This document shows, one piece after another, positions 15,813-61,946 of a stretch of 64,000 nt of DNA. Each line of letters opens with the position of its first letter. Position 1 is the first letter of the stretch. Position numbers and translations under genes: made by a program. Under the pieces are notes generated by a model. That model was not told the DNA's origin. It was given only the letters and a program-made list of their open reading frames with translations, and made no database searches. The stretch is from Eledone cirrhosa (lineage: Eukaryota), in NCBI GenBank assembly GCA_964016885.1, contig OZ024743.1, positions 17,236,001 through 17,300,000 of the forward strand. The letters run 5' to 3'.

Positions 15813-15997
15813 TGTTTCTACTTAAGGCACAAGGCCAGCAATTAACCAGTGCATTACAGGTACTTTATTTTATCGACCCCGTAAGGATGAAAGGCAAAGT
15901 CAACCTCGGCGGGATTTGAACTCAGATCGTAAAGGGACGTAACTATGCTGGAAAACATGGCGTCCGACTCTCTACCGATACTGCCAATCCACCGCCC
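15813..15997 (-). mobile_element. tRNA-type SINE, full length, 13-bp TSD
   Basis: Element strand starts gggcggtggattggcagtatcggtagag (A-box-like) and has B-box gagttcaaatcc. TSD ttttaaatataat at 15800-15812 and 15998-16010. Confidence 0.93.
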
Positions 15998-16025
15998 TTT
16001 TAAATATAATGATGTTAAATATAAT

Positions 16026-16210
16026 TGTTTCTACTTTAGGCACAAGGCCAGCAAATACCCAGTACATTACTGGTACTTTATTTTATCGACCCCGTAAGGA
16101 TGAAAGGCAAAGTTAACCTGGGCGGGATTTGAACTCAGACTGTAAAGGGACGTAACTATGCTAGAAAACATGGCGTCCAACCCTCTACCGATACTGCCAA
16201 TTCACCGCCC
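16026..16210 (-). mobile_element. tRNA-type SINE, full length, 19-bp TSD
   Basis: Same family. TSD taatgatgttaaatataat at 16007-16025 and 16211-16229. Confidence 0.93.
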
Positions 16211-17096: not shown

Positions 17097-17335
17097 TGAG
17101 TTATTTGTATTCGTTGTAGAGCTAATTGATTATTGTTGAATACGTTACACACAAAAGCATGATGAAACAGTTCGTCAAATCCCAAATCAACTCTAAAAAA
17201 TTAACATATCTATCTGTATATTAGATGTAATTTGAAACGTATGACCTTCATAAGATTTACTTCTAAATATTACTATTTGTTAGAGGACCATCGACATTTT
17301 GAGAAGAGTAACATAAATCAACATCATTATTTTAC

Positions 17336-17450
17336 AGTTTGAGTTCAAATACCGCCGAGTTTAACTTTGCCTTTCATCCTTACGGGGCGATAAAATAAAT
17401 CATCAGTAATAGACTGTGATAATTGCTGACATTTTGCCAAAGTTGAAACA
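17336..17450 (+). mobile_element. 5'-truncated SINE with 10-bp TSD
   Basis: gagttcaaatacc...ctttgcctttcatccttacgggg...gaaaca. TSD attattttac at 17326-17335 and 17451-17460. Confidence 0.85.
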
Positions 17451-19281: not shown

Positions 19282-19450
19282 ATTCTTCTTCTTCTTCTTC
19301 TTCTTCTTCTTCTTCTTCTTCTTCTTCTTCTTCTTCCTGAGAGGTTTGTGGGAGCAGAGTCCTGAAACACTCCTTCCAGCGGGTCCTGTTCGCAGCAACC
19401 ATCTACAATTGATCAATTTACAGCTCATTAACATACTCGGAGTAGCTATC
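19282..19450 (-). mobile_element. Probable 3' end of an RTE-like LINE with (GAA)n tail
   Basis: Minus frame VAANRTRWKEC resembles the RTE C-terminal AxDRxxWR motif, followed by (GAA)n. A loosely related segment lies at ~20875-21030. Confidence 0.35.
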
Positions 19451-21253
19451 ATACATGCTTCAATTACAACGCAATTTTTCATATAAATTTGTATTTAATA
19501 TCCCCCAAACGGCATTATATGCATTGCATCCAAATGTAGGAAAGCAAGATAGAATCTAGTAAGCAATTTTCTCGTGGATGTATTTTCCTATTGGTGTATT
19601 TGGTGCTAGGAATATAATAGCCATTACAAATATAGGATCGTTCTTTAACAATTTACTTCTGCACCACTGAAGTTCCTGAAAGTATGTGAAATATTGTCCT
19701 AAGATATTGGGCAATTTAAATACATAATTCCTACAAAAAATCACCACATTCTTTAAAATAACACACGTGAAAATGCCAGCACACATGTACACATATGGAC
19801 AAATATGCCTTATAGAATGTATTGCATATGGTTAACCCTTTAGCTCACGTGTTTTCTACGATGTTTAACAACATTTAAATATCAAGTGGCAGAAAAATAG
19901 TAGAATCTTTTGTTAATTCCATGATTTGCTTATAAAAATATATATTATAAACTAACATCCTATGTGTATACTTATCCATGTGTCTAGTGAGATTTAAGGA
20001 GTAAGTATTTGCATCCGGTTTCATGGCATTGGATGAATGCAGGAAATACGGATTGCTATTTAGTACAAGATGGATTGATTGGAGTTACCTTATATTGTTT
20101 GTCATCAATATACGAAAATATAGTTGCGAACAGTGAATGGTACATATATGAATGTTTGCAGAAATAAGAGAAACAACACAAAGTGGTTGTAGCAGGTGTT
20201 GAACGTACAGGTATTACCTAAAAATCTTGTAAGTATATTTTATAGGATTATGTGAGGTTGACATATTCATATGCTAATATCTACGTGGGTAAACATTCAG
20301 ATAACATTATTTACCCTATTTCTGTCAGGATTCGATGTTTGAATCGTAACCAACAACAAATTGAGCCGTGACCCTCATATTGTAGTTGCGTGAGAAATAA
20401 TACACCAGTTTTCTAATCAGGTGCGCTTATATAATACTAGGTATCTCTTTATTTTAACTTTCCCTCTCACTTTGGAAGCAAACAGATTTGATAAAATGCT
20501 GAGTATAAAAATTGTAATTACCCACGAACCGTGATATCTGAACGAAGAGATTATAAAGATTCATCGTAAGTCGAAGGACCAACAGAGAAAGTCTTGTATT
20601 ATATAATATAAGTTCTACTATCGACAGTTTACTTGACGCATGTTGCTTGTAAAGAAAAATATTATAATGCGCATAATTTGGATGTACGAAGTTCCTTTTA
20701 ATCAGCATTTCGTATACATGCAGCCAACAAGGGCATTTTTCTAAAGGAAAGTATTCAGATACAGAAATATGACAGCGTGGAGAATTGAATTTACGACGCA
20801 AATATGAAGTTCATTATTCTTCGAGAAATAATTTATAATACATTGTACTCAACAATAAAACAACTGTGTTTCATGTCTTCTTGTTCTTCACCAATTTATT
20901 CTGGAGAGAGTCATGGGGACAGAAAGTTCAAATACTCCTTCCAGTCAGAAGCAACCGCTTCCAACAGATTTTGCAGGATCTAAAGCAAGACCAGCCTAGC
21001 CTATGGAATAACGATACTCGAAAGTATCGACAGTTCAACCCGCCGCTTCTAAAATTGAGAGATATCAATTTTGATATTAGAGACATATGGTCAGTATATG
21101 TAAGCAAAGAATCGCTAGATAGATTTTACGTGCAAAACCAATTTGTAGAACACCCAGCCGTAAAACCCGAGTAAGATGGTTGGATAAAATCCATGGGATA
21201 GGCTGGAAGAAGAAGAAGGAGGAGGAATACACTGGAGGAGGGGAAGGGGATAC

Positions 21254-21295
<42 letters not shown>

Positions 21296-21615
21296 TTTCA
21301 TTTATTGGCCACAAGGGCCGACATATAGGGGATTATACAAAAGACTGTTACAGTGTGGTTTTACAGAAAAATCGAGTAAACAATATGAATAAACAAAGTA
21401 ACAATAACAAAGTAACAATACAGTAACAATAAAATTACAACAAGAAAACATTCCCCAATAGGGTTCGCTCAGGTACCCCACCAGTCCTGAACGACCCGAC
21501 GTTTCGAGAGCACCCTGGAAGGGCACCCCTCTCCTCTTCAAATTTACCTACCTACAGCCGCATGACCAGAGTAGGCCCACTCACACGGGTCATTCTCGCC
21601 ACATTCACCCACCTT

Positions 21616-24600
21616 TCAGCAAATGTACCGGGGGGCAGCACATTCCCTCTCCACCCTCACCTTCCTTTCCAACTGAAACTTGAAAAAGTTGATGAGGGAT
21701 TGGCCGAAGAGAAAAGTGTCTGTCTTCAGTCCTTTCAACCTCGTCCACCATACAACCTCTTTCGCTACTGCCACCAGACAGAGGAAAATTGCCTGCCCTT
21801 CCTGGCCAAAAGAAGGCGGCGGGTCGATCGTCACTATGGACTCGGCCGATAGCCGGATCCGTTCTACAGGCGACAACAGCTGTTCAACATAACTCCACAA
21901 GTCAATAATGCACGGACACTGAACGAGTGCGTGCAGAACGGTTTCGTCGTACTGCGCGCATCTCGGGCAGGTCCGTCTGACAGTACTTCCGTGCCTGTAG
22001 AGTTTATCTCGAACCGGCAGTGCCCCGCGGTAGCACTGCCAAGCGAGGGATTTTTGGAAATTATCCATCGTCCCCGGCTCGGTACAGACTGGTTAGTTCG
22101 AATTCGTAGACTCCCAGAGCCTCTCTGAGTACGTTGTCGCACTTTCCCACCACTAATCCTCGAGAGTGGAAGTTCCACTGACCGCATTGCTCGCTGGCAG
22201 AGGGCAGTGAGTGCCTGGCAACATTCCAGATGCCAGTCACCCAGTCTCGGTCATTTCTTTACCCAGGACTGCAGCTCAGTCAAAGAAACGAGCTGCGGAA
22301 AAGCCCGTCTGACAAACGGCGACCACACCTGTTCACCGTTTAGGCAGAATATCTGGAGATGCCGGAGCCTCAGCGCGTGCCTGCGCATCATTAGGCACGG
22401 CATGCCCAGTCCTCTAAGTAGAGGGTGCTGGCAGCAGATGGACCGCATCACCAGCGGAACCGGACCCCTCCACAAGAATTTGAAGAGGAGCCGCTCCAAG
22501 ATGGCGAGGCGCGAACAGGGGCAAGGGACGACAGTTAAACGGTAGTAGATGACGAACTCGATGTACGCGTTCGCCACCTCCGCTCGACCTTTCAGTGATA
22601 GCTTCATCCCAACCCATTTCTGGGTGACACTGACTACCCTGACCGTCACCTCGTCCCAATTGTTATCCACCTGGAGGTCTGACCCGAACCAAACACCTAG
22701 AAACTTTACCGGTCCGTCTGTCCAGCGCCTAACGACGCTGTTGGAAAGCATGTACTTGCCACTCCAGGTGCCGAGTTGCAAGCCTACTAACTTTTCCGGC
22801 TTAAGTTTTGCTCCCGTCAACCTTTCATATTCCTCCAATAAGTTGCTGACCACCTCGATTTCTGAGGTGTCCCACACCATCACGGTGATGTCGTCCGCAT
22901 AAGCCGACACAGCCTTTCCGCGTCCCGGTTCGAGCGGGATGCCCTGCAACAGCTCCAGCTTCCGCAGTAAAGGCTCGAGAGTCAATGCGTACAGAAGGGA
23001 GGAGAGAGGGCACCCTGACGGACCGTTGGGGAGACCTGAAACGGTTCCGAGGGGTGGCCATTAATTTTGACCATCAGCAGGTCCCGCTGTGCATTGCAGC
23101 GATCCAGCTTCTGAAGACGGGGCCGAAGCCAGCCGCCTTGAGAACAGCCTCCAGGTACCGATGGTCGACCCTATCGAATGCTTTCGATTGATCTAAATTG
23201 ATCAGAGCCCCACCGAAGCCAGGTTTACACCCTACCCTCTCTATGATGTATCGCATTAGGTGGAGGTTGTCGTGTATGGACCTGGTTGGGATTGCGCAAG
23301 TTTGCGCCTCCCCAACAAATGCCCCACGACAAGCGCCAACTTCTTCGCTAACACCCGGGTCAAAATCTTAAACTCAGTGTTGAGCAGAGTTATGGGCCTG
23401 AAATTGTCTAACGTGTCCCTCTTGTTCTCGTCTTTCCTTATCAGCGTCACTACGCCCCGGCTCACAGAACTGGAAATACTCCCGTTTTACTGCCAGTTGC
23501 AGTAGAGGGCTTCGAGGAGATTGGAGAACAAGTCTGGCATATTTACGTAAAGCTCGTAGGGCAGACCATCCAAACCGGGTGACTTGCGCCTCATGCAGCC
23601 TACAAGGGCATCCTGAATCTCGGCTGATGTAATTGGCCTTTCGCAGTGCCCAGCGTCAGCCGTCGAGAGTTGCGGCAAGCCATCGATGTAGGGACTGAAG
23701 TCCGCCACCATCTCTGACCCGCCACTTCCCCCCAACAACCGAGCAAAATGTTGGCAAAAGGCCTCACACATCCTCTTGGAATCGCTCAGCTCGTGCCGCT
23801 CTCGGTCCGTCAAAGACCGAATCCTGGTTTTATTACCACGCTGCGCCTCTGCCACGCGGGCCCATCGAACAGCTTTGGTTCCCTCGTTTCTCAGGGCACG
23901 CGCCTTAGCTCTGACAATGCAACCTTCGTGTTTCGCATTGAAGAAATGGTCTAATGCCATTCTCGCCGCTAGCACATCAGTTGCAATGCCACTACCAATA
24001 GCCTCGTCTAACTTATCTACCAACTCCTCCTCCTTTCTATTTTTCTCTAATGCTACTTCTTTGCTAAACTCTATCGACATTACTCTAATCTCTCTTTTGA
24101 GTGCCTCCTACCATCTATTGTTGACGATTCCTCCTATCAACTTTTTCTTAACTAAATTGTTGACCTGGTCCCTCTAAGCCTTACGTGCCGGAAATGACAT
24201 GTTTAGCTTCCAGTAACCAGGTCCTAACCTACGCGACTTATCTAGGTCGACCATACAGATCACAAACTTGTGATCTGAATAGGCGACCGGTTCAAAACGG
24301 GATAGCTTACACTATTTCTGTCTATTTTCCTAATGAATATCCTGTCTATATACGATCTAGATGACCCTATACGGTTAACCCAGGTCCACACTGGCGCATT
24401 AGGGAAATCTAGTCGGTACCTGTCAGACAGTTGGAACTGGCTGATCAGGTTCTTGAGGCTTTTACACCCCCTGCTCCTATCGGATAATCCCACACAGTGC
24501 CAGCGTGCGTCTAAGATGCCGTTCAAGTCCCCCGCTAACAGTAAAGGGCGAGACGTACCCTGAAAGACTTCCAGGCGTCTAAAGAAGTCCGGCCGTCCTG

Positions 24601-24948
24601 CCCCAGTAGGAGCATAGACGGCCACCAGTCTAAATGCACCACCTTCATTATTGTTCACGTCCAGGACCACCAACTTCCCGTCCGGGTCCCGGAAGATCGA
24701 CCTTCCTCAAGATCCAGACCTTTCCTAACCAGCACTGCCACCCCGCCTCCCATTCCCGGCCGGTTAACAGATGCAAAGATCTGATAGTCGTCGAAAATGG
24801 GGGCTAGTGCGCGTGTATCGGAAATCCTGGTTTCGCTGACTGCAATTACATCCATTTCTATAGACCTGAGGTCGTTGAGCAGGTGACCCCGCTTCCAGGA
24901 CGATCCCAGGCCTCGAACATTTAAACATCTTGCTCTTAATACGGCCAT
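21616..24948 (-). pseudogene. Copy A ORF2: APE endonuclease + reverse transcriptase + C-terminal zinc finger (frameshifted)
   Basis: LNVRGL, VSET, VYAP, GDLN, YIDRIF, YWKLN, KSPGLDGLP, NFRPITLLN, DQSKAFDRVDH, YADD, LSLKGR, CPRC...HALVQC. Confidence 0.92.
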
Positions 24949-24979
24949 GTTGGCAGGTTAAACAGAGAGAGAGGAAGGT

Positions 24980-26937
24980 CTACTTACTTTCCGGGCTCTT
25001 GTGAAGGTCGGGTTGTTCGACCTCCATAGTTAGTGGGGTTTCTTTTGGGATCCCCTTTAAAAGTCTTGAAGTGGGTTTTAAGTTCGGGGTTCCCACGTCC
25101 CGAGGAAATCTGTCTCGTATTTCTTTGAATATGTTGAGCGACATTCGCACCAGAACCAAATCTTCCGGCCCGCGAAATGTGCTCGATTTAAACATTTCCC
25201 CCTCTTTTTGGATATTTTCCCTTCGTGCGACGAGGGCCATCAGTTCCTTGTTGGCCCTCCTGACGAGCACGAATTTTGTATGTTTTGTTGGTGTGATTTT
25301 ATTTGTTTGTGTGGCTGTGGTGGTGATGGTTGTGGTGTTGTTGTTTCGGTTGTATCTGTGTTTGTTGTGAGTTCAGATGTTTGTGTGTATATTTGTTCTT
25401 GCGTCTGTTTCGGTTGTTTGCGTTTGGGGGATTCCGGTGATAGTGATGGTGGTGTTGATGTTGGTGTTATTGGAGAGATGTCTGCTTGGATGGTGTCTGG
25501 TTTTTTTATTGTGGGTGCTTTTTGTGCTGTGTTGAGTTTTTTTTTCTTTTTGTGTTTCCTTTTTTGTATTTTGGGGGATTTTGGATTTCACTCATTTTCA
25601 CTACTGGTATCTGAGGGGTCTGTGTCTGTAAGTGTGTCTGTATGTATGTTTAAGGTTTTATTGGTATGTGTATTTTTGGGGGGAGTGAGAATTTGACAGC
25701 TTTCCTCGTTTCTCCCCTGGGTGGTCAATGTTGGTGGTGGTCTTTCTATTGGTGTTGTTGTTGCTGGTTTTGCCGGTGCAGGCGTTGGTTGTGGTCTTCG
25801 CCCCGGCGTCGGCAGCAGTCGAGCCTTTCGACCCCTTGCCACTTTCAGCAGTTGAGGGCAGAAGGCTCGCAAATGGGTTTTTACCCCACAAACAAAACAC
25901 TGCGGTCTTTTGGCTTTTGTGAATGACAGTCCCATTCTGAAGGCGGATGTGGTCTGGGATTGTCTTCACATTCTCGGGCCTGATCTGGAGAAGGATCTCC
26001 AGGTCAACCCCGGACCAGTCCTCTCTAGCCGTTCTGGTCACTTCTATAGGGACTGTATCCGTCCCCTCCACAATCACACATCCCAGAAGCCACCACATGT
26101 CAAGTCCTGGTGGTATTCTGGGAATGCGGGGACGGGCGGTTCTTTTTCCCATGTGGGAAGGGTACATTATGACCTTGCTGGTTTTGCAAGGAGTCATAGA
26201 GTGTTTCATAGCGAGGGCTTCTGACTTGAACAACACCGAAATGGTGCCGTACTGTCTGCCCCTCTCTATGTACTGGGTGTCTACTCTGATGCACCTCAGC
26301 GCGACTTCGACGTCTTCTTGTGGGATTAACGCTGCCCTTTTGGTTTGTGCTGAGATGCATTTATAATGCACCGTTTTGCGCTCCACTGCCTCAATAGCTT
26401 CTACCGGGACAGTTAAGCATGAGCTTCCATGCCTGGGCCAACTTTTCATCTTTGTTTGAGAGGTCCATGTTGAAGCATGGCCTCTTTTTTGCTGCTGCCG
26501 AAGCGAGAGTGGTCTTGTTTTCGTTGGGGGTGTTGTTGACGTTGTTCTTGTTGGTGTTGTTGTTAGCACTGTCACTGTTATCATTGTTGTCTTTGTTGCC
26601 ACCGTTGTTCTCGGTGCAGTTGGTATTGTTGCTGTTGGTGTTGTCGCTATTTATTTTCATGTTAGTGGTGTTGATATTGTTGTTGTATTTGTTTGTTTTT
26701 TTTGTTATCTGTATTTTCGTTGTCGCTGTTACTGTCATTTTTTTCAAAATGAGAGTTCTTATTGGTATCATTGGTGTCTTTGTTTACCTTGTTTGTGGTG
26801 GTGTTTGTATTATCAATGTGTTTTAATTTCGCTGTAGCGCTCCTCTCAACTTCTACGTCGTTGTCGCACGACAGCCGACATATCGCTGCGGCGCGTGGCT
26901 CAGCCAAGTTTTTTTTTCTTTGTACATTTTTTAACAT
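24980..26937 (-). pseudogene. Copy A ORF1: gag-like nucleic-acid-binding protein (frameshifted)
   Basis: Asn/Thr-rich N-terminus, RGRQYGTISVLF block, knuckle CFVCGVKTHLRAFC, and a C-terminal domain shared with B and C. Confidence 0.8.
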
Positions 26938-27138
26938 GTAAAAAAAAGTTCAAATATTTGGGCCAAAAGGCCCAAATATTATACTTTCCCCTTCACGGGG
27001 CAAAGTCTAAGGGCTTATATCCCTTACACAACAAGAAATATTTAACAACAAATAATTTAAACAGGCAAATAAAGCGACTTACTGTGAGCTAGCAAAATAC
27101 GTCCGCTTACACCAATAATAAATAATAATAATAATAAT

Positions 27139-27316
27139 TGTTTCTACGTTTGGCACAAGGCCAGTAATTACCCAGAGCATTACTGGTACTTTATTTTATC
27201 GACCCCGAAAGGATTTAAGGCAAAGTTAACCTCGGCGGGATTTGAACTCTGAATGGCAAGGGCCGTAACTCTATACGTCTAACCATGGCATCCGTCCCTC
27301 TACCGATACTACCAAT
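27139..27316 (-). mobile_element. tRNA-type SINE whose (ATT)n 3' flank is interrupted by LINE copy A
   Basis: Family core and tail present. The 3' end runs into (ATT)n and then directly into the 5' end of copy A. Confidence 0.88.
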
Positions 27317-27435
27317 ACTACTAATACATGCCAAACACTCGAGTCAATTTACGTCAACATCTATTTATATTTCAACTTCAACCCCATCACTACAGTACTA
27401 CGATCACATCACCACCACCACTGCCTCATTATCGC

Positions 27436-29792
27436 TTCCTCGGTGGAAGAAACGACTGAATGGTCAAATCAGGGAAATGAGAAATGTCATTGGAAAGCTT
27501 GAGTCCCTACTGAATGAGACACTAAAAAACATAGACGCTAAAAATAGACTGGAAATAAAGTACTAAACTAGGAGGAAAAGGTTAAATGTTATCACAGAGG
27601 AACTGAAGCAACGCATTGTAGCAAAGAGTGCAACATTTAGGCGAACGAGAGCAGAGTCAGTCAGTATAGACAGAACCGCATGTTTGACAACAACCAGAAG
27701 AAGTTATTTGGACAGCCTGAAGGGAAAGAAAGAGGCAACGACTTTATCGCTGAGGCGGAATAACTAAGACATTCTGGAGAGGAATATGGGAGTAGGTTGT
27801 GAAACATAATGATCAGGCAGTGTGGATTGAGACAGTACAAAAGGAGATTAGTGAACAGGCACACCAACAAACTGATTTGAGTATCACAGTTGAAACTCTC
27901 AAGGGGCAGTCCAAAATACTAACCAACTGGAAATCACCAGGCCCAGATGGTGTGCAAGGGTAATGGATTAAAAATGTAACATCCCTCCACCCGAAACTGA
28001 CAAACATGTTCAATGACTGCTTGATGTCAGGTGAGGTACCAGAGTGGTTGACAGAAGGTACCACAGTTCTGGTAATGAAAGACCGAATCAAGGGTAATTA
28101 TGTTACCAACTATAGACCTATCACATGTCTGTCCGTAATGTGGAAACTGTTGACAAGCATTGTGTCTGAGGAGATCTACCATCACCTCCACACAAACAAC
28201 TTGTTACCGGACGAACAGAAAGGATGCCGAAAGAAGTGCCATAGTTCAAAGGAACAGTTACTTATTGATAAGATGTTAATGAGAAATTGCAAGAGGAGAC
28301 ACACAGGTCTTGCCATGGGATGGATAGACTACAAAAAGGCATTTGACATGGTGCCTCATTCTTGGACTACCAAAAGCCTAAAGATCTTCAAGGTGGCAGA
28401 TAACATGAGATAATTGTTGAGCGAAAGTATTAAGTCCTGAAAAACAGAGTTAACATCAGCTGGAGAATCCTTGGGAGGCGTGAAGATCAAGACAGGTATC
28501 TTCCAGGGAGATAATATGTCCCCTCTGTTGTTTGTCCTTGCCCTGATGTCCCTGACCATTATACTGCGAAAAGTGAGAGCAGGATACAAGTTGGGAAAGG
28601 GAGAGCTTACCATCAATCACCTCCTCTTCATGGACGATCTTAAGCTCTTCGGGAAGTGTGAGAAGTAGTTGGATGTGCTTGTTGACACTGTCCGTATTTT
28701 CAGCGATGATATATGAATGGAATTTGGTATTATAAGTGAGAAGTCCTAGTGTTGAAGAGGGGGAAAAATTGAGCAGAAGCAACGGAATCCAGGTACCAAC
28801 ATTTGAGATGATAAAGGAAATTGACACTGAAGAAGGATTCAAATAGTTATGTGTTCTGGAGGCAGATGACATCAAGAACAAACAGATGAGGGAATTGATA
28901 AGATCTGAATACATTAGGAGAGTAAGGAGCGTATTAAAATCACATCTAAATAGTAGGAATGCCACAAGTGCAGTGAATTCCCGAGCTGTGTCTATTATTA
29001 GGTACAGTGCGGGAATTCTGAGATGGAATGTTGCTGAACAAAAAGAAATGGATAGGATGACTAGGAAGCTATTGATTATCTACAACATGTCCCACAAGAA
29101 GAGTGATGTCGGTAGACTCTACTTAAAGAGATCTGAAGGTGGAAGTGATTTATCAGCATAGAGGAATTTGTTCAGATGGAAAAAAACAACCTGCACAAAT
29201 ACGTGACCGACAGTAGGGAGCCAATGCTCAGAATTGTACTGAAGGGTAGAAAATAGAGCAGGAAATAACAACAAAAAGGAAGAGCAACCTTCATTAAAAC
29301 TCCCTTCATAGTAGCTTCTTTGAGAAAATTGAATATAATGATCCACAGACATAGAACTAGTTAAAAAGAGGAGACCTTAAAAAGGCTATAGAGGAATGCT
29401 AACGGCTGCGCAGGTGCAGGCACTCAAAACGAAGTGGGTGAAACACCATATTTACAAGGAGGAGGCTAGCCCACTGTGCAGGATCTGAGGAGAGATAGAG
29501 AGGAGACTGTGGCTCAGATTGTATCAAAGTGTAAACACCTAGCCCAGACTCACTATAAAGGCCGGAGACCTAAAGTCAGAGTCGTCCCGATTGTCATAGG
29601 CGCACTAGGTACTATCTCAAAGAGATTCCAAGGTTGGTAAAAGATATTTAGTCCAGACCAGCTTTTTGGAACACTTCAAAAGGCACGTCCTGAAAGATAC
29701 GTCCTGAATATCAGAGGCTGCAGGTAGCGGCTTGATATTCATTTAAACAAACTTTCCAGTTAAATAACATCAATGGCTGAGACTCAAAGAAC
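27436..29792 (+). mobile_element. R4/Dong-like (RLE-type) non-LTR retrotransposon, 5'-truncated and decayed
   Basis: PRWKKRL, NWKSPGPDGVQG, PEWLTEGTT, NYRPITCL, EQKGC, WIDYKKAFDMVPHSW, GIFQGD.MSPLLF, HLLFMDDLKL, CRI...ETVAQIVSKC, VVPIVIGALG. Ends in (TAA)n. Confidence 0.85.
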
Positions 29793-29823
<31 letters not shown>

Positions 29824-30066
29824 TTTTCTTTATTAACCACAAGGGTTTACATAAAGTAGACATTAAGGACAGTACGGGACAATACAGGACGGTAAAAATG
29901 GGCATTTCTGCGTGTAAAAAAAACAGAGGATGAAATAAAAAAACAAAGAAAAATTCCCCAATAGGGGGGAGACTTCCGAGGGACATTTGTGGAGAAAGCC
30001 CATTAAAAGACCACAGTGGCCCTGACCACCAGGGCAAGTGCCCTCTCCCAGTTTTCCACCTTTAAT

Positions 30067-33000
30067 TTACTGACACATACTCAGAGAAGGCCCATTCATT
30101 CGGGCCATACTTGCTTCTCTCACCCATCTTTCAACAAAATGCTGGGAAGAGAGCACTTCCCTCTCTACCCTGATTTTCCTTTTCAGATGAAATTTGAAAA
30201 AGTTAATCAGGGCATCACCGAAGAAGTAAGTGCTCGTCTTCAGCCCTTTCAAACGTGTCCACCATACTATCTCTTTCGCCCTGGCCACCAGACAGATAAA
30301 AACTGCCTGCCCTTCCTGGCTAAAGGAAGAGGGCGGGGCAATCCTCACAACGGACTCAGCTGATAGCTGGATCCGTCCTACACGTGACAGCAGATGTTCG
30401 ACATAAACCTACAAGTCAGCAATGCTCGGACACTGGACGAGTGCGTGCAGGACGGTTTTGTCGCCCTGTGCGCATCTCGGACATGCCCGGCTGACGGCAC
30501 ATCCATGCCTGTAAAGTTTATCCCGAACTGGCAAAGCACCCCGGTAGCAGTGCCAGGTCAGGGATTTCTGGAAGTTGTCCAGAGGCCCCGGCCCGAAAGT
30601 CCTTCCGAAGAGATTGGCTAGTTGATTTTCGTCGACGCCTAGAGTTTCTCCAAGTACGTCGTCGCTCTTCCCTTCCACTAATCCCCTATAGACCGCCTAG
30701 GTGGAGTTTCCACCGATCACATTGCCAGATTGGTCGAGGGCTGTGAACGCCTGAAGACATTCCAGTCTCCAAGCGCTCCCTCTCGGTCTTCGCTTGACCC
30801 AGGACTGCAGCTCCGTCAAGGAGACGAGCTGGGGAAAAACGTGTCTAGCAAACGGCGACCACACCTGATCACCGTCGAGGAAGAGGTGGAGATATCGTAG
30901 CCTGAGCGCGTGTCTGCGCATCATCAGCCACGGCATGCCCAGCCCTCCACGTAGCGGGTGTTGACAGCAGATGGACCGCCTGACCATAGGCGAAAGAGCA
31001 AACCCTCCAGCGCAGTCAGGTGGGGCTTAGGACAGGGTACGACGGTCAGGCGGTAGTAGATGACGGACGCGATGTACGCGTTAGCCACCTCCGCTCGACC
31101 TTTCAGAGATAGCTTCCTCTCGGACCATTTCTGGGTGAGAGAAGCCACCCTGCTCGTCACCTCGTCCCAGTTTTTGTCCGTCTGGAGGTCTGGACCGAAC
31201 CAGACCCCTAGCAATTTAACCGGTCCGTCTGTCCAGCGCCCAACGACGCTGTTGGACGGCATGGACCTGCCTCTCCAGGTGCCGGGCTGCAGGCCCACTG
31301 ACTTTTCCTGGTTGATCATTGCTCCTGTCACCGCTTCGTATTCTCTTAGTGTAGTGCCGATCGCCCCGATGTGTTTGGCGTTCGACACCACTACGGTGAC
31401 ATCGTCGGCATATGCTGACACGGATCTTCCGCATCCTAGTTCGCGCGGGATCCCCCTCAACGTCTCCAGTTTGTGCAGTAATGGCTCGAGAGTCAATACG
31501 TACAATAGGGACGAGAGGGGACATCCTTGGCGGACCGAGCGCATGATGTTGAACGGTTCCGAAAGGTGACCGTTCACTCTCACTACAGAGCAGATGTTGC
31601 TGTGCATGCAGCGATCCAGCCTGTGAAGACGGGCCCAAAGCCAGCCGCCCTCAGGACTGCCGCTAGATAACGATAGTCGACCCTATCGAAAGCTTTCGAC
31701 TGATCTAAATTAAACAACGACCCACCCGTGCCAGGTTCCCTAGCTACCCTCTCTACGATGTATCTTATTAGGTGGCGGTTGTCGTGGATGGATCTGTCAG
31801 AAATGGCGCATGTCTGAACCTCTCCCACCAGACCACCAACGACAAGCGCCAGCCTCTTTGCTAGCACCTTGGCCAAAATCTTGAACTCTGTGTTTAGCAG
31901 AGTTATGGGCCTGAAATTATCTATGTTATGCCCTTTGTTCGGATCCTTTCTCAGCAGCCCCACCGCTCCTCGGCTCACAGAGCTGGGAATTCTCCCGTTC
32001 TGTTGCCAGTTGCAGTAGACGTCCGCCAAGAGGCCTCCGAACAAGTTTGGCATTTGTACGTAAAGTTCATAGGGCAGACCATCCAAACCAGGCGATTTAC
32101 CCCTTGTGCAACTAGTCATTGCATCCCGTACTTCAGCGGTCGTTATCGGCTTTTCGCAACACTCCGCCTCAGTGGCCGAAAGCCGCGGCAGTCCGTCGAG
32201 GTAGACACTAAAGTGCATCCCTCGATCCGGCACACCACTGCCCCCGAACAGTTGAGCGAAGTGTTGCTGAAAAGTTTCACACATTTGCCCGGGATCGAGT
32301 AGCATGCGCCCGTCGTGGTCCACCAAAGACCGGATCGTGGCTTTGTTGCCACGACGCGCCTCCGCCACTCGGGCCCATTGAACGGCTTTCGTCCCCTCGT
32401 GTCTGAGAGCACGCACCCTAGCTCTGACAACGCAGCCTTCGTGCTTTGCATTGAAGAATTGGTCAAGGGCCAATTTCGCCGCAAGTACGTCGGTCGCGAT
32501 GCCTTTGCTAAGCGCCTCATCTAATTTTCTAACTAGTTCTCCCTCTGCTCTATTTTTCTCTATTGCTAAAGTCTTACTAAACCTAATGGACTCTATTCTA
32601 ATTGCTCTTTTCAGAGCAAACCACCACTTGTTGTTGACGATGGCCCCCGTCAATGCCCGCTTAACTAGTTCGCTAATACGGTCTCTGTAGGCCTTTCGCG
32701 CTGGTAAGGACGCGTTTAGCTTCCAGTAGCCGGGTCCTCGCCTATGAAGCCTATCTAAGTCAAGCACACAGATGACGAATTTGTGGTCCGTGTAGCTGAC
32801 TATCTTGAATTGTGGACAGCCTTTGCTAGACCTATCTATTTCCCTACAAAATACTCTATCTAGATATGATCTGGATGACCCTATGCGATTTGTCCAATCC
32901 ACATTGTTACATTCGGGAAATCCATTCGGTACCTGTCAGAGTGTTCAAAACGTCTGAGCAGGTTGGTGAGACTCTTGCACCCTCCTTCCCTATCCACTAA

Positions 33001-33462
33001 TCCCACACAATCCCAGCGTGCATCTAAGATCCCGTTCCAGTCTCCCACTAACACTAAAGAGCGGGACGTTCCAAGAAAGTTCTCCAGACGCCGGAAGAAA
33101 TAAGGCCGCCCTGCTCCTGTCGGGGCATAGACGGCCACTAACCTGAAAGCTTGCCCGTCTCCGCTGGTCACGTCCAGCACCACCAACTTACCTTCTGGGT
33201 CCAGGAAGATGGCCCGTATGGCAAGATCCAAACCTCTCCGAAAAAGCACAGCAACTCCTCCCCCCGATCCCGGACGGCTGGGAGATGCGTACACATCGTA
33301 GCCGCCGAAGATCGGTGCGAAAGCCTGTGCTTCGGAGATTCTGGTCTCGCTGATGGCCACTACATCTTTGTTTAGTGACCTGAGGTCGTTGAGCAGGTGG
33401 CCCTGCTTCCATGACGACCCCAAGCCACGCGCATTTATGCTGCCTATTCTGAGTGAGGTCAT
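30067..33462 (-). pseudogene. Copy B ORF2: APE + RT + zinc finger (frameshifted)
   Basis: INARGL, ISET, VYAP, GDWN, YLDRVF, TDH, KSPGLDGLP, DQSKAFDRVD, QGCPLSSLLY, YADD, CPRC...HALVQC. Confidence 0.93.
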
Positions 33463-33496
33463 GTTGAAAAGAAGTGGAAAAGATGGGAAAGACCAC

Positions 33497-35475
33497 TTAC
33501 CTTACTTCTCGTAGGGGAAGGACGGTTTTTCCATCCTTTTCACTGCTTGTGGCCTCCTCAGGAAGTATGTCCTTATAAATACTCCTGGAGAGTGCTTGTC
33601 GGAAGTCTCCGATGTCTTTGGGGAATTTTTGTTTTAGTGTCATGTACGTTTTCTGTGTGATGCGAGTGATTTGTATGTGTGGAGGTGGTGTGAATTTTGG
33701 GGTTTTTGTGTAGTCTTTTTCTGTGATGCTGGTGTTGTGTTGGATGTAGTGTAATAATTGCTTGTTGTTCAAATTTAATGCTGTGTAGTGTGTATCGTTT
33801 TGGTTGTTTTGTTTTGTTTGCGTTTGTTGTGGGTTTGTTTCTGTTTCGCATTTTGGTGACTTTTGTGGTGTAGGTGATGGTGGTGTTGGAGTTAATGATG
33901 GTGATGGTGTTGGTGTTTGGGTTGATGGGGTTGGTGATGCTGGTATGGATGGTGGCATATCTGTCCTAACTTTTTTGTTTCTTAGTTTATTTGTTTCCCT
34001 CTGTATTTTGTTTTTGGAGGGGGAAGGAAGAGAATTTTTTCTTTTTTGGTTTCTTTTTTTTTTTCCGGATATCGTTTCCCACTCCTCGTCGTCACAATCT
34101 GTCTCCAGTTGTGATAGGCCGGGGAGTGGAAAATCCTCCACAGGCGTTAGTTTTGGTTGTGGCATGGTGGATGGTGTAGGCGCTGGTGCTAGTTCTGAAG
34201 CGTTGGGTGGTGGTGGTGTTGGTTTTGCTGGTGGTGGTGGTGGTGTTGGTTTTGCTACTGTTGCTGGGGTTGTTGTTGTTATAGTTGCTTATGTTGTTGC
34301 TGCTACAGTTGTTGCTGCCATCTCTGCTACTGGTTGTGTTGATGGTTGTGTCACTGGGGTGGGTAGGAGAGGTGGCCTCAACCTTTTAGCCTGAGGGCAG
34401 AAAGCCCTTAGGTGGGTTCCTTCACCACAAACGGCACACCTAGGTCTTCTGCCCTCGACAATTACCGTGAGGTGGCTGCCGTCAGTGAGGTCTATTACCT
34501 CTGGAATCTCCTCAATGCTTTTTTGGTCTGCTTGGATCAGGAGCTCCATCCCAGATCCGGACCAGTTCTCCTGCTTTTCTTTTGCTATTGCTATTATTTT
34601 TGTGTTGGCTTCGATGCCGGCGAGGACGGCCGCTATTAGCCAGGGAATTTCGATGGCCGGTGGAACGTGGGTCACCCTGATCTTTACGAGTATCTGGCCA
34701 CAATAGCTTGGGACGAGTGTGAAGTCGTCACTTCTTAATGGGGCCATGGAGTGTTCTCTAGCCTCCTCTGGTGTTTCAAAGAACACGTCCACGGTTCCAT
34801 ACTTTTGCCCACGTCTGATGTGGGTTTTTCTTGCCCACACATGTCCCAAAGCTTTTTGGATTTGGGACTCGGATGCCCGCACCACTCGGCGCGATTTTAC
34901 ATTTATTGTTCTATACGACACGGTGCATAGGCGCCGATGCTCCATTTTATTAGGTAGGGGTGGGGGGGGGGGCTGACCCTGTACCCATCTTTCTTTACCA
35001 TTTGTTTGGCATTTTCTAAATCCTCCTGAGTTACCGTAAATGCTTCGAACGGTTTTGCTACTCTGGCGAAACTGAGGGTCGGTTTTATAATGTCATTGTT
35101 GTTGTTGTTGCTATCGTTATTTGTGTTAATATTAATTTTAGTTTCAGTTGTGGTGGTGATGACGTCAGTCAGCTTTGGTGGGGAAGAGTCCATTTTTCTT
35201 GATTTCATTTCGACATCACGAGTTAACTTATTTTTTTCTTCTTTTATTTCTGTTGTCGCGGTGGTGGTGGGGGTGGTGGTGGAGGCTTTAACACCTGCCG
35301 TCATTGGTAATGGCGGGAAATTAATGTCTGCCTGAGACAAATTTAAAATATTGCTAGTGCTTATATTTTTTTTAGTGTTGGCAAACGTAGTAACATATAC
35401 AATGGTGGTATCGGTGTGAGGTGTTAATTTGTGAGAAAGGCTTTCAGCTGCTTCGTGCAGAGGTGAATAAGCCAT
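33497..35475 (-). pseudogene. Copy B ORF1: gag-like protein (frameshifted)
   Basis: RRGQKYGTVDVFF block, knuckle CAVCGEGTHLRAFC, Pro/Thr linker, basic NLS-like stretch, conserved C-terminal domain. Confidence 0.82.
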
Positions 35476-35683
35476 TTTTTTTCAAAGAAATTTTTGATAA
35501 TAATAAAAGTTAAAATGTTGGGCACAAGGCCCCAATCATTTTGGGTGTCCTTTTCGGAAAACAATGTATGTGCGCTTATATATGGTTAATAATAAACATT
35601 TTCCATAAATGGCAATTTTTAACAAACGGAAATAACAAACATTTGCGGAGCTCACGATGATACGATTTACTACGTAGGTCGCC

Positions 35684-35723
<40 letters not shown>

Positions 35724-35966
35724 CTTTCTTTATTAACCACAAGGGTTTACATAAAGTAGACATTAAGGACAGTACAGGGCAATAAAGGACGGTACGAATG
35801 GGCATTTCTGCGTGTAAAAAAAACAGAGGATGTAATACAAAATAACAATGAAAAATTCCCCAATAGGGAGGAGACTTGCGAGGGACATTTGTGGAGAAAG
35901 CCCATTAAAAGGCCACACAACCCTGACCACCAGGGCAAGTGCCCTCTCCCAGTTTCCACCTTTAAT

Positions 35967-38900
35967 TTACAGACACATACTCAGAGTAGGCTAATTCACT
36001 CAGGCCATACTTGCTTCTTTCACCCATCTTTCAACAAAATGCTGGGCAGAGAGCACTTCCCTCTCTACCCTGATTTTCCCTTTCAAATGAAATTTGAAAA
36101 AGTTAATCGGCATCACCGAAGAGGTAAGTGCTCGTCTTCAGACATTTCAAACGTGTCCACCATACTATCTCTTTCGCCATGGCCACCAGACAGGTAAAAA
36201 CTGCCTGCCCTTCCTGGCTAAAGGAAGAGGGCGGGCAATCCTCACGATGGACTCAGCTGATAGCTGGATCCGCCCTACACGTGACAGCAGGTGTTCGACA
36301 TAAACCCACAAGTCAGCAATGCTCGGACATTGGACGAGTTCGTGCAGGACGGATTCGTCGCCCTGCGCGCATCTCGGACATGCCCGGCTGACGGCGCCTC
36401 CATGCCTGTAGAGTTTATGCCGAACTGGCAAGGCTCCTCGGTAGCACTGCCAGACCAGAGATTTCTGGAAGTTGTCCATAGGTCCCGGTCCGAAAGTTCT
36501 ACCGAAGAGATTGTCTAGTTGATTTTCATCGACGCCTAGAATTTCCCCAAGTACGTCGTCGCTCTTCCCCTCCACTAATCATCTATAGAACTCTGAGGTG
36601 GAGTTTCCACCGATCACATTGCCCGATTGGTCGAGGACTGTGAGCGCCTGAAAACATTCCAGTCTCCAGGCGCTCCCTCTCTGTCTTTGCTTGACCCAGG
36701 ACTGCAGCCCCGTCAAGGAAATGAGCTGGGGAAATACGTGTCTAGCAAACGGCGAGCACACCTGATCAGCGTCGAGGAAGAGATGGAGATGTAGTATGAG
36801 CGCGTGTCTGCGCATCATCAGCCACGGCATTCCCAGCCCTCCACGTAGCGGGTGTTGACAGCAGATGGACAGCCTGACCATCGGAGCGCGTCCCTTCCAC
36901 AAAAAGCGAAAGAGCAAACGCTCCAGCGCAGTCAGGCGGGGCTTAGGTACGACGGTCAGGCGGTAGCAGATGACAAACGCGATGTACGCATTCGCCACCT
37001 CCGCTCGACCTTTCGGGGATAGCTTCCTCTCCGCCCATTTCTGGGTGAGACAAGCCACCCTGCTCGTCACCGTGTCCCAGTTTGGAGGTCCGGACCGAAC
37101 CAGACCCCTAGCAATTTAACCGGTCCGTCTGTCCAGCGTCCGACGACGCTTTTGGACGGCATGAACGTGCCTCTCCAGGTGCCGAGCTGCAGGTCCACTG
37201 ACTTTTCCTGGTTGATCATTGCTCCTGTCACCGTTTCGTATTCTCTTAGTGTAGTGCCGATCGCCTCGATGTGTTTGGCTTTCGCCACCACTACGGTGAC
37301 ATCGTCCGCATATGCTGACACGGAACTTCCGCATCCTAGTTCGCGGGGGACGCCCCTCAACGTCTCCAGTTTGTGCAGTAATGGCTCAAGAGTCAATACG
37401 TACAAGAGGGACGAGAGGGGACATCCTTGGCGGACCGAGCGCATGAAGTTGAACGGTTCCGAAAGGTGAACGTTCACTCTCACCACAGAGCAGATGTCGC
37501 TGTGCATGGCAGTGATCCAGCCTCTGAAGACGGGCCCAATGCCAGCCGCCCTCAGGACTGCCGCTAGATAACGATAGTCGACCCTATCGAAAGCTTTCGA
37601 CTGATCTAAATTAAACAACGACCCACCCGTGCCAGGTTCCCTAGCTACCCTCTCTACGATGTATCTTATTAGGTGGCGGTTGTCGTGGATGGATCTGTCA
37701 GAAATGGCGCATGTCTGAACCTCTCCCACCAGCCCACCAACGACAAGCGCCAGCCTCTTTGCTAGCACCTTGGCCAAAATCTTGAACTCTGTGTTTAGCA
37801 GAGTTATGGGCCTGAAATTATCTATGTTATGCCCTTTGTTCGGATCCTTTCTCAGCAGCCCCACCGCTCCTCGGCTCACAGAACTGGGAATTCTCCCGTT
37901 CTGTTGCCAGTCGCAGTATACGTCCACCAAGAGGTCTCCGAACAAGTCTGGCATCTGTACGTAAAGTTCATAGGGCAGACCATCCAAACCAGGCGATTTA
38001 CCACTTGTGCAGCCAGTCATTGCCTCCCATACTTCAGCAGCTGTTATCGGCTTTTCGCAACACTCAGTGGCAGAGAGCCGCGGCAGTCCGTCGAGGTAGA
38101 CACTAAAGTCCATCCCTCGACCCGGCCCACCGCTGCCCCCGAACTGCTGAGCGAAGTGTCGCTGAAAAGCTTCACACATTTGCCCGAGATCGAGTAGCAT
38201 GCGCACGTTGTGAACCACCAAAGACCGGATCGTGGCTTTGTTGCGACGACGCGCCTCCGCCACTCGGGCCCATTGAACGGCTTTCGTCCCCTCGTGTCTG
38301 AGAGCACGCACCCTAGCTCTGACAACGCAGCCTTCGTACTATGCATTGAAGAATTGGTCAAGGGCCAATTTCGCCGCAAGCTCGTCTAATGTTCTAACTA
38401 GTTCTCCCTCTGATCTATTTTTCTCTATCGCTAAAGCCTTACTAAACCTAATGGATTCTATTATAATCGCTCTTTTCAGAGCAAACCACCACTTGTTGTT
38501 GACGATGACCCCCGTCAACGCCCGCTTAGCTAGTTCGCTAATCCGGTATCTGTAGGCCTTGTGCGCTGGTAAGGATGCGTTTAGCTTCCAGTAGCCGGGT
38601 CCTCGTCTATGAAGCCTATCTAAGTCAAGCACACAGATCACGAATTTGTGGTCCGTGTAGCTGACTATCTTGAATTGTGGACAGCCTATGCTAGACCTAT
38701 CTATTTCCCTACAAAATACACTATCTAGATATGATCTGGATGACCCAATGCGATTTGTCCAAGTCCACATTGGCACATTCGGGAAATCCAATCGGTACCT
38801 GTCAGAGAGTTCAAAACGCCTGAGCAGGTTAGTGAGACTCTTGCCCCCTCCACCCCTATCCGCTAATCCCACACAGTCCCACAGCGTGTATCTAAGATCC

Positions 38901-39318
38901 CGTTCCAGTCGCCCACTATCACTAAAGAGCAGGACGTTACAAGAAAGTTCTCCAGACGCCGGAAGAAATCAGGCCGCCCTGCTCCTGTCGGAGCATAGAC
39001 GGCCACTAGCCTTAAAGCTTGCCCGTCTCCGCTGGTAACGTCCAGCACCACCAACTTATCCTCTGGGTCCGTATGGCGAGATCCACACCTCTCCGAAAAA
39101 GCACAGCAACTCCTCCCCCCCGATCCAGGACGGCTGGGAGATGCGTACACATCGTAGCCGCCGAAGATCGGTGCGAAGGCCCGTGCTTCGGAGATTCTGG
39201 TCTCGCTGATGGCCGCTACATCTATGTTTAGAAACCGGAGGTCGTTGAGCAGGTGACCCTGCTTCCATGACGACCCCAAGCCACGCCCATTTATGCTGCC
39301 TATTCTGAGTGAGGTCAT
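35967..39318 (-). pseudogene. Copy C ORF2: APE + RT + zinc finger (frameshifted)
   Basis: Same motifs as copy B, to which it is highly similar at the nucleotide level. Confidence 0.93.
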
Positions 39319-39353
39319 GTTTAACATAGAGTGGAAAAGATGAGAAAGACCTC

Positions 39354-41083
39354 TTACCGTACTTTTCGTAGAGGAAGGATGGTTTTTCCATCCATTTTCA
39401 CTTGATCGTCTGGTGAAGGGACCGTTGAATCGTCCCTTCGGCTGGTCGTCGGCTCTTCTATGGGTATGTCCGAATATACTCTTCGGTTGAGAGTCCCTCC
39501 TAGGTCTCTGAAACCACCAACTGCGTTGGGGAATTTCGTTTTAATGTTTGTATATTGTTTCTGTGCTATTTTTAGCAGTCTTATATTAGTTGGCGTTTTG
39601 ATTGGTGCTGGTATTATGTGGTCGTGCTGTGAAATGTCTGTGTGTTCAATTACGTAAGTCATTAGTTTCTTGTGTGTATTTATTGCCGTGCATTTGTTTT
39701 TATGGGGGTGGGGTGTGGTTCTGCTATTTTCATGTCGTTGTTGCTGGGTGTGTGTGTTTTGTTGTTGTGTTTGCGATGTTGGTGCTTGCGGTGGTGGTGT
39801 TGAAGATGTTGTTGTTGTTGGCGGTGGGGTTGTCGCCGGTGGTGATGGTGGTGCTAGTGTGGGTGGTGATGGTGTTGGTGATGTTGCTGCTGTGAGTCTC
39901 TTTGCCGTAGCCTTTACCCTTTTTTCATTTCTTTCCTCCCTTTTCGAAGGCGACGATGCGCTACTTCTGCGTTTGTGCCTTCTTAAGATTTTTTGCCATA
40001 CCTCTCCCACCTCACACTCCATGCCTGATTCTGTGAAGTCGGGGAGGGGTACCAGCTACACTCTTTCACTTGTTGTTGGTGATGTTTGCACTGGAGTCTC
40101 TGTTGCAGCTGCATTTGGTATTACTGTTGTTGTTGTTAATACTTCCACTGCTGCTGCTGTTTTTGATTTCCGTGGCGTGGGTATGGTTGCCACGGACCTA
40201 TCGTTCCTGGTTGCCGCTTGTCCTGTTGCTGATAGCCGTGGAGTCGGTTTCGGAAGGAGGGGGGTTTCTCCTTTCTCAGGGTCTTCTCGATGCAGAAGGC
40301 CCTGAGGTGAGTCTTCGATCCACAGCGAAAGCATTTCGAGAGTTTGCGCTCAACAATTATGGGCAGTTGAGTCACGTTATCGAAGTCTATCACATCCGGG
40401 ATAGCTTCGATGCACTCCCGGTTGGTTTGATTAACATCTCAATGGAGGTGCCGACCCAATCTTCTCTTACTTTTTTCTGTACTTGCAGTACAGTTGTTTT
40501 GTCCTCGATTCCGACGAGGACAGACGCGGCCAGCCAAGAAGGGGCCATCCTATGGGGCGTGGGTCAGTTTGACCCTCACAATTTTTTGCCCGCAGTAGGA
40601 GGGCACCAACACCATTTCCGCGCTCCTTAGGGTCACTAAGGATTGAGCCTTTGCCTACTGGGTTGTGGCAAAAAGCACGTCTACGGTGGCATATTTCTTG
40701 CCTCGGGTGATGTGCGTTTTCCGCTGCCACACAGACCCTAAGGCTTTTTTGTTTTTGAGCCTCTGTGGCTCTTTCAACCCTACGGGATTTTGTGCTTACT
40801 GTACGGTACGTGACCGTACAGTGCTGTTGGATTTCGAAAAATTTCTCGGCTGCCTTGCAGATTACTCGGTAGTCCGATTTTCGTCATCCTCTTCTTCGCT
40901 TCCTCTAATTCCTCATTTGTTGTGAGGATGGTTTCCAGGTTCTTTGCGATACCTGCAAACGAGATTGGTTTTTCTTTGCTGCTGTTGTTGTTGTTGTTGT
41001 TGTTGTTGTCAGAGCTGCTGTTACTTTTGTTGTTGCTGCAGGTACTACGACTACTGAGGCCGCCGCTGTTGCTGTGGTTGTTG

Positions 41084-41114
<31 letters not shown>

Positions 41115-41488
41115 TGTTGCTAATGCTGTTGGTGTGTTTATGTTGGTGCTGATGCTGTTGCGGCTGCTACTGTTGTTTTCTTGTCACTGTTGCTGCTGCT
41201 GCTGTTATTACGGCTACTACTGCTATTATTCCTGACGTCAGACGAATGAAATGGGTTTTCGTATTTCCCCCACACCTTTTTCGTCGTTGTCGTCGTCGTC
41301 GTGGAGAAATCTTGCACGCTTTGCACGTGATTTTTCTTTTCTGGCGTCGCTTGCGAAAGAGAAGGGATTGAGAGAGACACATTTAGAGAAGGGAGGGAGA
41401 GAGACTATCTTCTCTCTGCTGTAGTGACGATTGAGGAAGAAGACGGAATGAGTGGGAATGACCTATGAAAATTCTTTTTCGTAGCCAT
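39354..41488 (-). pseudogene. Copy C ORF1: gag-like protein (frameshifted; start approximate)
   Basis: KALGSVWQRKTHITRGKKYATVDV block, knuckle CFRCGSKTHLRAFC, (CAG/AAC)n-encoded low-complexity N-terminus. Confidence 0.78.
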
Positions 41489-41703
41489 GTTGTTTTTTTG
41501 TTTAAAATAAATATTGGGCACAAAACCCCAATAAGCGTTTATTTAACCCCGAAGGGCCAAATAACGGGCAGAAAGGCCCATCTCACGAGGAGGAGGGTGT
41601 TTTTGTCTACAAGTTGGCCAAAGTTTTAAACAATTTACAATTGTTATAGCGGTCAAAATTTACAATACCTTACAGAGCCGAGCCTCCGTCAACCATAGCA
41701 TTC

Positions 41704-41753
<50 letters not shown>

Positions 41754-61942: not shown

Positions 61943-61946
61943 TGTA

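Follow-up and report, generated by a model that had tools for sequence, protein, structure and literature searches.

Stacked Tx1-like retrotransposons at ATT repeats in Eledone cirrhosa, and a tailless SINE with a similar 3′ hairpin

We analysed a 64,000-nucleotide stretch of the genome of Eledone cirrhosa (GCA_964016885.1, contig OZ024743.1, positions 17,236,001–17,300,000 of the forward strand; hereafter the window, numbered from its first letter), in which three decayed retrotransposons related to Tx1, denoted A, B and C, form a stack bounded throughout by ATT repeats. The stack is real and non-random, and the elements very probably have a preference for ATT-type insertion sites. The sequences make it fairly likely that a Tx1-like endonuclease nicks the AAT-reading strand at ATY^RTTAT (the caret marking the position of the nick), and that a tailless short interspersed element (SINE), which has the same type of 3′ hairpin, borrows this enzyme. 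All counts given below refer to the window.

Three Tx1-like elements are bounded by ATT repeats

A (21294–27113, 5820 bp; apparently full length, decayed), B (29823–35683, 5861 bp; the least decayed) and C (35723–41703, 5981 bp) all lie on the minus strand. Stops and frameshifts break each of them; the copies are dead relics, with no implied host function. In A, the first open reading frame (ORF1) has a CCHC knuckle at about 25899, and ORF2, which encodes apurinic endonuclease-like (APE), reverse transcriptase (RT) and zinc finger domains, runs from about 24948. The ORF1 start codon, the CCHC knuckle and the ORF2 start codon are located at 35475, 34438 and 33462, respectively, in B, and at 41488, 40333 and 39318 in C.

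Pfam models detect Exo_endo_phos in B, RVT_1 in all three copies and zf-RVT in A, and no ORF1 family in any of them. ORF1, with one CCHC knuckle in each copy, is of the type combining an RNA-binding domain with CCHC, not of the Transposase_22 type; its Atlas matches are zf-CCHC and ZCCHC3-type RNA-binding clusters (0.90–0.93). An ORF1 type with a CCHC knuckle is associated with Tx1 (PMC5203782). For the RT, a coral protein bearing the name 'Transposon TX1' gives 202 bits, L1 ORF2p 96 bits and R2 74 bits, in searches of different databases. In an RT tree of 52 rows (48 of 240 homologous proteins and four rows from the window), A, B, C and the homolog P0001 form one clade (100/100); the tree holds one named Tx1 and no L1 row. 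On this basis the three copies likely belong to the Tx1 clade. Intact homologs align across A, B and C. Among the named relatives, the closest occur in Argonauta hians (55% with 97% of the query covered, 74% with 33% covered) and in Acanthosepion pharaonis (43%). The endonuclease most closely resembles L1 EN among PDB structures, and a PDB search with its second half gave nothing useful. A predicted loop (WTWxNRIGSSRSYxD), which presumably has a role in target recognition, has the same 15 residues in A and C; the four nearest relatives with sequence there, among them one from Argonauta, have a loop of similar length, and most of the sister lineage has one of 17 residues.

The 5′ junctions read ATT/GGTG (A), ATT/GGCG (B) and ATT/GAAT (C), and all three 3′ junctions read C/ATT. 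ATT is thus present at 6 of 6 junctions, that is at both ends of every copy, in keeping with the preference for particular target sequences seen in many members of the Tx1 clade. There is no poly(A) at any of the 3′ junctions; an AATAAA motif lies 6 nt before the Tx1 end (21306–21301 in A). The initial annotation had described (AAT)n at both ends, a single orientation and a G directly after ATT for the three copies, and its reading of the junctions was confirmed in each case. Rfam searches directed at a self-cleaving ribozyme or a small nuclear RNA (snRNA) head behind these G starts returned nothing at gathering score in the window, and three chance-level matches in 21000–42000; this explanation was rejected.

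The window is A+T-rich, with a G+C-richer block at about 21–42 kb. It contains five (AAT)n blocks of at least four units, all five of which flank A, B or C, and no (ATT)n block of at least four units on the plus strand. On that strand the blocks are (AAT)13 at 21255–21293, the downstream target copy of A; an imperfect tract at 27114–27138, with six perfect AAT units at 27121–27138, between the 3′ end of a SINE and the 5′ end of A; (AAT)10 at 29793–29822, common to the 3′ ends of B and of an R4/Dong-like fragment; (AAT)13 at 35684–35722, where C ends and B begins; and (AAT)16 at 41704–41751, upstream of C. Since the fourth block is common to B and C, five blocks suffice for three elements. The unique flank outside the (AAT)16 block reads ATC/ATTATT on the element strand.

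The arrangement of the stack agrees with that first annotated. A lies downstream of the SINE (27322→27139), which adjoins the tract at 27114–27138; B meets the plus-strand R4/Dong-like fragment (about 27429–29792) tail-to-tail, and C is positioned head-to-tail with B. Between the SINE head and the Dong-like fragment is an unrelated spacer (27323–27428) with neither Dong homology nor (TAA)n. The stack therefore comprises two separate ATT seeds divided by about 107 bp of unrelated DNA, and a single original microsatellite harbouring the entire 20 kb is unsupported. The SINE and A together may be flanked by a 7-bp duplication (27317–27330 and 21247–21260; minus-strand sequence ATTAGTA), with a chance level of about 3%; if it is real, the (ATT)n used by A derived from the target duplication of the SINE. 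No further 3′ or 5′ fragments of Tx1 were found in the window outside the stack, and neither the (TTC)18 array at 19283 nor the AG/TC arrays of the window contain a Tx1 element.

The three copies are separate insertions

Over ORF2, B and C show 93.9% identity, which falls to about 50–60% over the 5′ untranslated region (UTR) and ORF1; A is 67–78% identical to both in ORF2. The 5′ halves of the three copies are about 40–60% alike, which is noise level, and each begins directly after ATT. None of 13 internal ORF2 indels is common to B and C. From the unalignable 5′ halves, and the lack of common indels, we infer that A, B and C are three separate insertions, from three subfamilies. Tandem duplication of a dead copy to give B and C is ruled out by the about 50–60% alignment of ORF1 and, again, by the indels. 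The differences by codon position (5.0, 5.1 and 7.9%) appear to reflect mostly neutral decay. B has the shorter branch in the RT tree (0.027, compared with 0.067) and fewer breaks, as fits its apparent insertion directly behind the 3′ end of C; this order supports the earlier proposal that each insertion regenerates target for the next.

B and C combine near-identical ORF2 and 3′ UTR sequences with unrelated 5′ UTR/ORF1 DNA (33544–35683 in B, 39402–41703 in C), the switch lying just before the start of ORF2. Judging from this pattern, a 5′ half was probably swapped between subfamilies in their history.

An R4/Dong-like fragment as a probable landing pad

The element behind which B and C are stacked is an old, 5′-truncated R4/Dong-like fragment (27429–29792, plus strand), a provisional label taken over from the initial annotation. 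It matches residues 283–1001 and 1105–1158 of the homolog P0123 and has lost about 100 codons from the C-terminal nuclease region, including the stretch with the PD motif. Its RT is 63–64% identical to single-ORF homologs with CCHC and PD-(D/E)xK nuclease motifs; Dong has a single ORF with a C-terminal restriction-like nuclease. The fragment has about 14 stops and aligns in nine pieces (two of which overlap) over 2.3 kb, compared with two stops and three pieces for B, and this heavier decay indicates that it is much older than A–C. Its 3′ end runs directly into (AAT)n on its own strand, whilst neither a TAA repeat nor a target duplication (best match 4 nt) is present at its 5′ junction.

The initial annotation had proposed that two endonuclease types share one microsatellite niche. 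The window does not support that claim: the Dong-like copy, far more decayed and without TAA at its 5′ junction, acted as substrate only. More generally, active use of (TAA/TTA)n by both Tx1 (through APE) and Dong (through its restriction-like nuclease), in opposite orientations, would be compatible with the mechanism that we prefer, and we put it slightly below an even chance. The continuation of the Dong-like 3′ end into (AAT)n on its own strand is consistent with it, as are reports of TAA-targeting Dong families, one from a snail (PMC3812793), and of recent activity of both L1-Tx1 and Dong-R4 in Octopus vulgaris (PMC13282606). Set against these are the 5′ junction and the advanced decay just described, and the fact that with a single copy tail and target are indistinguishable.

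A second Dong-like RT fragment, very short and decayed, is present at 9369–9494 (plus strand). One R4-like homolog, P0121 (1710 residues), has an internally duplicated RT region, probably an assembly artefact of its record.

A tailless SINE shares a predicted 3′ hairpin with Tx1

A profile search identified nine copies of the SINE in the window, up to 185 bp in length. The 3′ end, GAAACA, is kept in seven of them, where the next bases are ATTAT (six copies) or GTTAT (one copy). Five of these seven copies have exact target duplications, of 10, 12, 13, 16 and 19 bp, beginning at RTTAT; at random sites a duplication of at least 10 bp was obtained in 1.1% of 12,545 trials. Since the duplications begin at RTTAT, these bases belong to the target, and the SINE is tailless. 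The copies with duplications are at 5372–5526 (plus strand; 12 bp, ATC^ATTAT), 15813–16209 (minus strand; two head-to-tail copies with 13 and 19 bp, both ATC^ATTAT), 17331–17450 (plus strand; 5′-truncated, 10 bp, ATC^ATTAT, hairpin loop diverged) and 54632–54785 (minus strand; 16 bp, TAT^GTTAT). At 11785–11967 (minus strand) ATTAT follows the SINE and no target duplication was found. The copy beside A (27139–27322, minus strand) ends in GAAACA and has its hairpin, TGGC-CTTGT-GCCA, at 27151–27163.

The sequences are short, non-coding and dispersed, with duplications of variable length and 5′ truncation, as expected of a SINE. The head is apparently of tRNA type, with motifs that by eye resemble the A and B boxes of Pol III promoters; ARAGORN and Rfam gave no match. 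Presumably, the copies belong to a common octopus SINE family. At 5138–5534 (plus strand), an older and more diverged SINE lies in an ATT/AGT-periodic stretch with a second copy close behind, which suggests small-scale stacking like that of the Tx1 array.

Near their 3′ ends the SINE and the Tx1 copies are predicted to form hairpins with a CTTGT loop, on stems of GGCC/GGCC in A (21307–21319; GGCC-CTTGT-GGCC), AACC/GGTT in B (29835–29847; AACC-CTTGT-GGTT) and C (35735–35747), all on the minus strand, and TGGC/GCCW in the SINE. Loop and target are 16 nt apart in the SINE, B and C, and 17 nt apart in A. A 3-bp stem with a CTTGT loop occurs at 18 sites in the window; nine of them also have GAAA at the fixed spacing, and these nine are exactly the three Tx1 and six SINE ends, each followed by RTTAT. 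Block shuffles gave a mean of 0.05 sites conforming to the full hairpin descriptor. Of the 30 cells in the stem alignment all but one are paired, and both sides have changed in two of the three pairs. A structured 3′ end common to SINE and partner, with compensatory changes, is a feature of stringent pairs; here it is represented by a small stem in three lineages. In the last 24 nt of the SINE, 14–15 positions match B and C, compared with 7–10 for the Dong-like end, which lacks the CTTGT hairpin; Dong was accordingly rejected as the SINE partner.

These shared features make it reasonably likely that the SINE was moved by this Tx1. The main alternative for the SINE is that Tx1 targets ATT repeats, yet the SINE was mobilised by another long interspersed element (LINE), of RTE, CR1 or L2 type, whose 3′ end and site preference are similar. 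CR1 and RTE are the usual partners of SINEs, only three SINEs with L1-clade tails being known (PMC3747384, PMC3472496), both clades were recently active in O. vulgaris (PMC13282606), and the stretch common to the SINE and Tx1 is short. The loop, 16-nt spacing, GAAA, target strand and junction of the SINE are, however, all those of Tx1 B and C, and the sole other LINE 3′ end in the stack, that of the Dong-like fragment, matches the SINE worse; we regard this alternative as rather unlikely.

A hairpin resembling that at the 3′ end is also kept in the three otherwise unalignable 5′ UTRs (at 35498–35532 in B, near 26973 in A and near 41530 in C; all minus strand). That of B mimics the SINE 3′ end together with its ATT target (28 of 35 positions identical, ungapped), and the corresponding region of A folds strongly (z −4.4). 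These hairpins may be captured 3′ ends of neighbours, or putative second protein-binding sites.

ATT-type sequence is the probable target

As the initial annotation had it, ATT appears to be the target of insertion and not a mere tail. No Tx1 tail can account for the (ATT)16 upstream of C, each of three unrelated 5′ ends directly follows ATT repeats, and the tailless SINE duplicates targets that start with RTTAT. By rough calculation, three insertions would fall into such tracts in a single orientation with a probability of 3e-10 to 7e-9 (for a window chosen for its stack), or of 4e-7 to 4e-6 if the two seeds only are counted. The common ATT/G phase of the three 5′ ends, expected about 1 time in 9 by phase alone, is weak evidence.

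The insertion sites of the SINE help to define the preferred sequence. ATC lies directly before the duplication at four of five sites, or three of four with the adjacent pair at 15813–16209 counted once (background 7/503; P about 1e-5, post hoc). These sites suggest a degenerate recognition motif, ATY^RTTAT, with (ATT)n as its perfect form. Specificity for (ATT)n had been proposed at the outset; the preference for ATT-type sequence stands, whilst the SINE sites, which point to the degenerate motif, give no support for a strict requirement for a microsatellite. A pyrimidine-only microsatellite, the target type of Kibi and Koshi, is not what these elements occupy, their target being ATT.

Several observations weigh against this picture of a shared hairpin and target. 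The data come from one window with three Tx1 copies, picked for being stacked. The hairpin descriptor is post hoc, drawn from the same sequences, and the covariation comes from three lineages (A, B/C and the SINE). The hairpin is small, with folding z-scores (−1.14 to 0.44) that are not significant; it is absent from the lowest-energy fold in one of two SINE ends tried, the CTTGT loop is lost in one of seven SINE ends, and the likeness between the SINE and Tx1 is confined to about 25 nt. Two of the seven SINE copies with an intact 3′ end have no clear duplication, and the fifth site with a duplication is TAT^GTTAT, not ATC. The SINE sites match (ATT)6 only partially (10–13 of 18 positions; background mean 6.1), and their upstream 9 nt alone are mostly not significant.

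The pattern of bases around the nick suggests that specificity probably resides mainly in the endonuclease. It could instead be that the endonuclease is loosely AT-preferring, and that targeting arises when read-through AUU in the RNA anneals to a nicked strand ending in AAT. With AATAAA only 6 nt before the Tx1 end, transcripts would carry downstream ATT units, and no poly(A) is inserted; the SINE donors would likewise all read through ATTAT. ATC, however, is on the unpaired side of the nick, so that annealing does not explain the bases there, which recur in three of four independent SINE sites against 7/503 in the background; A and C have, moreover, kept the same endonuclease loop although they diverge by about 27% in nucleotide sequence. 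We consider annealing as the source of specificity improbable. Less credible still is that (ATT)n is a 3′ tail only, the 5′ blocks being neighbours' tails met by chance, mis-assembly or recombination: the upstream blocks do adjoin or continue the 3′ ends of others (the SINE for A, C for B, and a split Dong-like tail for C), but three unrelated 5′ ends would have to fall exactly on rare tracts, a mis-join through tails would give a tail with a random flank instead of the first base of an element, B and C did not arise by duplication of a dead copy, and the SINE is tailless.

Proposed mechanism of insertion

In the mechanism that we favour, endonucleolytic targeting at ATY^RTTAT, the ORF2 protein would bind the 3′ hairpin and thereby fix the start point of reverse transcription. 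The APE domain would nick the bottom strand at 5′-ATAAY^R-3′, a site that (AAT)n presents every 3 nt; the L1 endonuclease likewise nicks at a pyrimidine–purine step. Read-through AUU in the RNA may aid priming, given the position of AATAAA only 6 nt before the Tx1 end. The duplicated target, together with later slippage, would leave a fresh C/ATTATT behind the element and so allow head-to-tail stacking; slippage is invoked because the blocks (25–48 bp) exceed the duplications of the SINE. The predicted order of events is the Dong-like fragment, then C, then B, with the SINE preceding A, and the Dong-like element would have acted as a landing pad only.

Tentatively, this may be extended to an octopod Tx1 lineage that recognises its RNA by a 3′ stem-loop and not by poly(A), whose endonuclease itself selects ATT repeats and whose machinery moves an abundant tailless SINE. 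The target duplications of both would seed new (ATT)n for further Tx1 copies, and possibly for Dong from the other strand. The lineage would then be an animal element of the L1 group that combines site specificity with stringency and has a genuine SINE partner.

Relation to known systems

The stack shows a new target, ATT, within a known clade. Many Tx1 families are target-specific, and the microsatellite targets described are (TC)n, (TTC)n, (TTCC)n and (TTTC)n (PMC4494074). Kibi and Koshi, from teleosts, and a crocodilian Tx1 group in (TTCC)n/(TTTC)n are likewise two-ORF APE–RT elements in microsatellites (PMC4494074, PMC3812793). Compared by target description and not by sequence, they differ from A–C in that they target pyrimidine repeats (TC, TTC, TTCC, TTTC) whereas A–C target ATT/AAT. 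The same TAA/TTA trinucleotide is used by Dong, of the R4 clade, which PMC3812793 places under APE types; the Dong-like relic in the stack has the opposite orientation to the repeat from that of Tx1.

A SINE has been paired with Tx1 before. For Tx1-Mar and SINEU of crocodilians the pairing was inferred from a common target preference, tandem insertions sandwich the target duplication, and specificity is weaker in some SINE families (PMC4494074), as with the SINE described here. SINEU, however, has snRNA heads, poly(A) tails and a Mariner target, whereas the SINE in the window is tailless, has a head of tRNA type and shares its 3′ hairpin with Tx1. Pairs of an L1-clade LINE and a SINE with a common 3′ end are LINE1-1_ZM/ZmSINE2-3 of maize and L1-1_CR/SINEX-3_CR of an alga; the maize 3′ end likewise forms a hairpin with a conserved loop, a variable but compensated stem and a conserved motif behind it (PMC3472496, PMC3747384). 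The accessible text describes no sequence-specific target for either pair, and the algal one ends in poly(A), whereas the present case is in an animal host, tailless and site-directed. A 2012 survey counted only three SINEs with L1-clade tails, in maize and alga (PMC3472496, PMC3747384).

No report of a Tx1 that targets ATT/TTA, or of a cephalopod Tx1–SINE pair, was found in the literature searched, which left out Repbase; the accessible parts of PMC4758252, PMC9115989, PMC8967140, PMC8869645, PMC4640811 and PMC4824008 do not mention an ATT-targeting Tx1. On balance we lean, by a little, towards the family not having been described already.

ATT would add an A+T trinucleotide to the targets of Tx1 endonucleases, which among microsatellites are otherwise pyrimidine repeats in the accessible literature, and would offer a simple substrate with which to study how specificity is set by the APE loop. 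The hairpin shared with the SINE bears on whether ancestral L1-clade elements were stringent. In O. vulgaris, SINEs make up 11.6% of the genome, and 893 of 900 recently active SINE families are unclassified (PMC13282606); a partner LINE, once named, would explain part of the SINE expansion in that species.

Other repeats in the window

Adjoining A, a stretch at 20876–21235 (plus strand) ends in a GAA/GGA-rich run and has no Pfam match. The (TTC)18 array at 19283–19379 is followed by a 69-bp stretch about 70% like 20876–20944 (plus strand), and the two regions may represent a further repeat. At 58228–63915 there is a 1.76-kb tandem duplication (58439–60199 and 60196–61984; 97.8%), with further repeats and hairpin-forming units between (TA)n arrays; the region may represent a family of repeats associated with (TA)n, or may have been duplicated in assembly. 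Inverted repeats at 8–375, 7345–7890 and 10277–10565, with arms that are 88%, 94% and 100% identical, respectively, resemble miniature inverted-repeat transposable elements.

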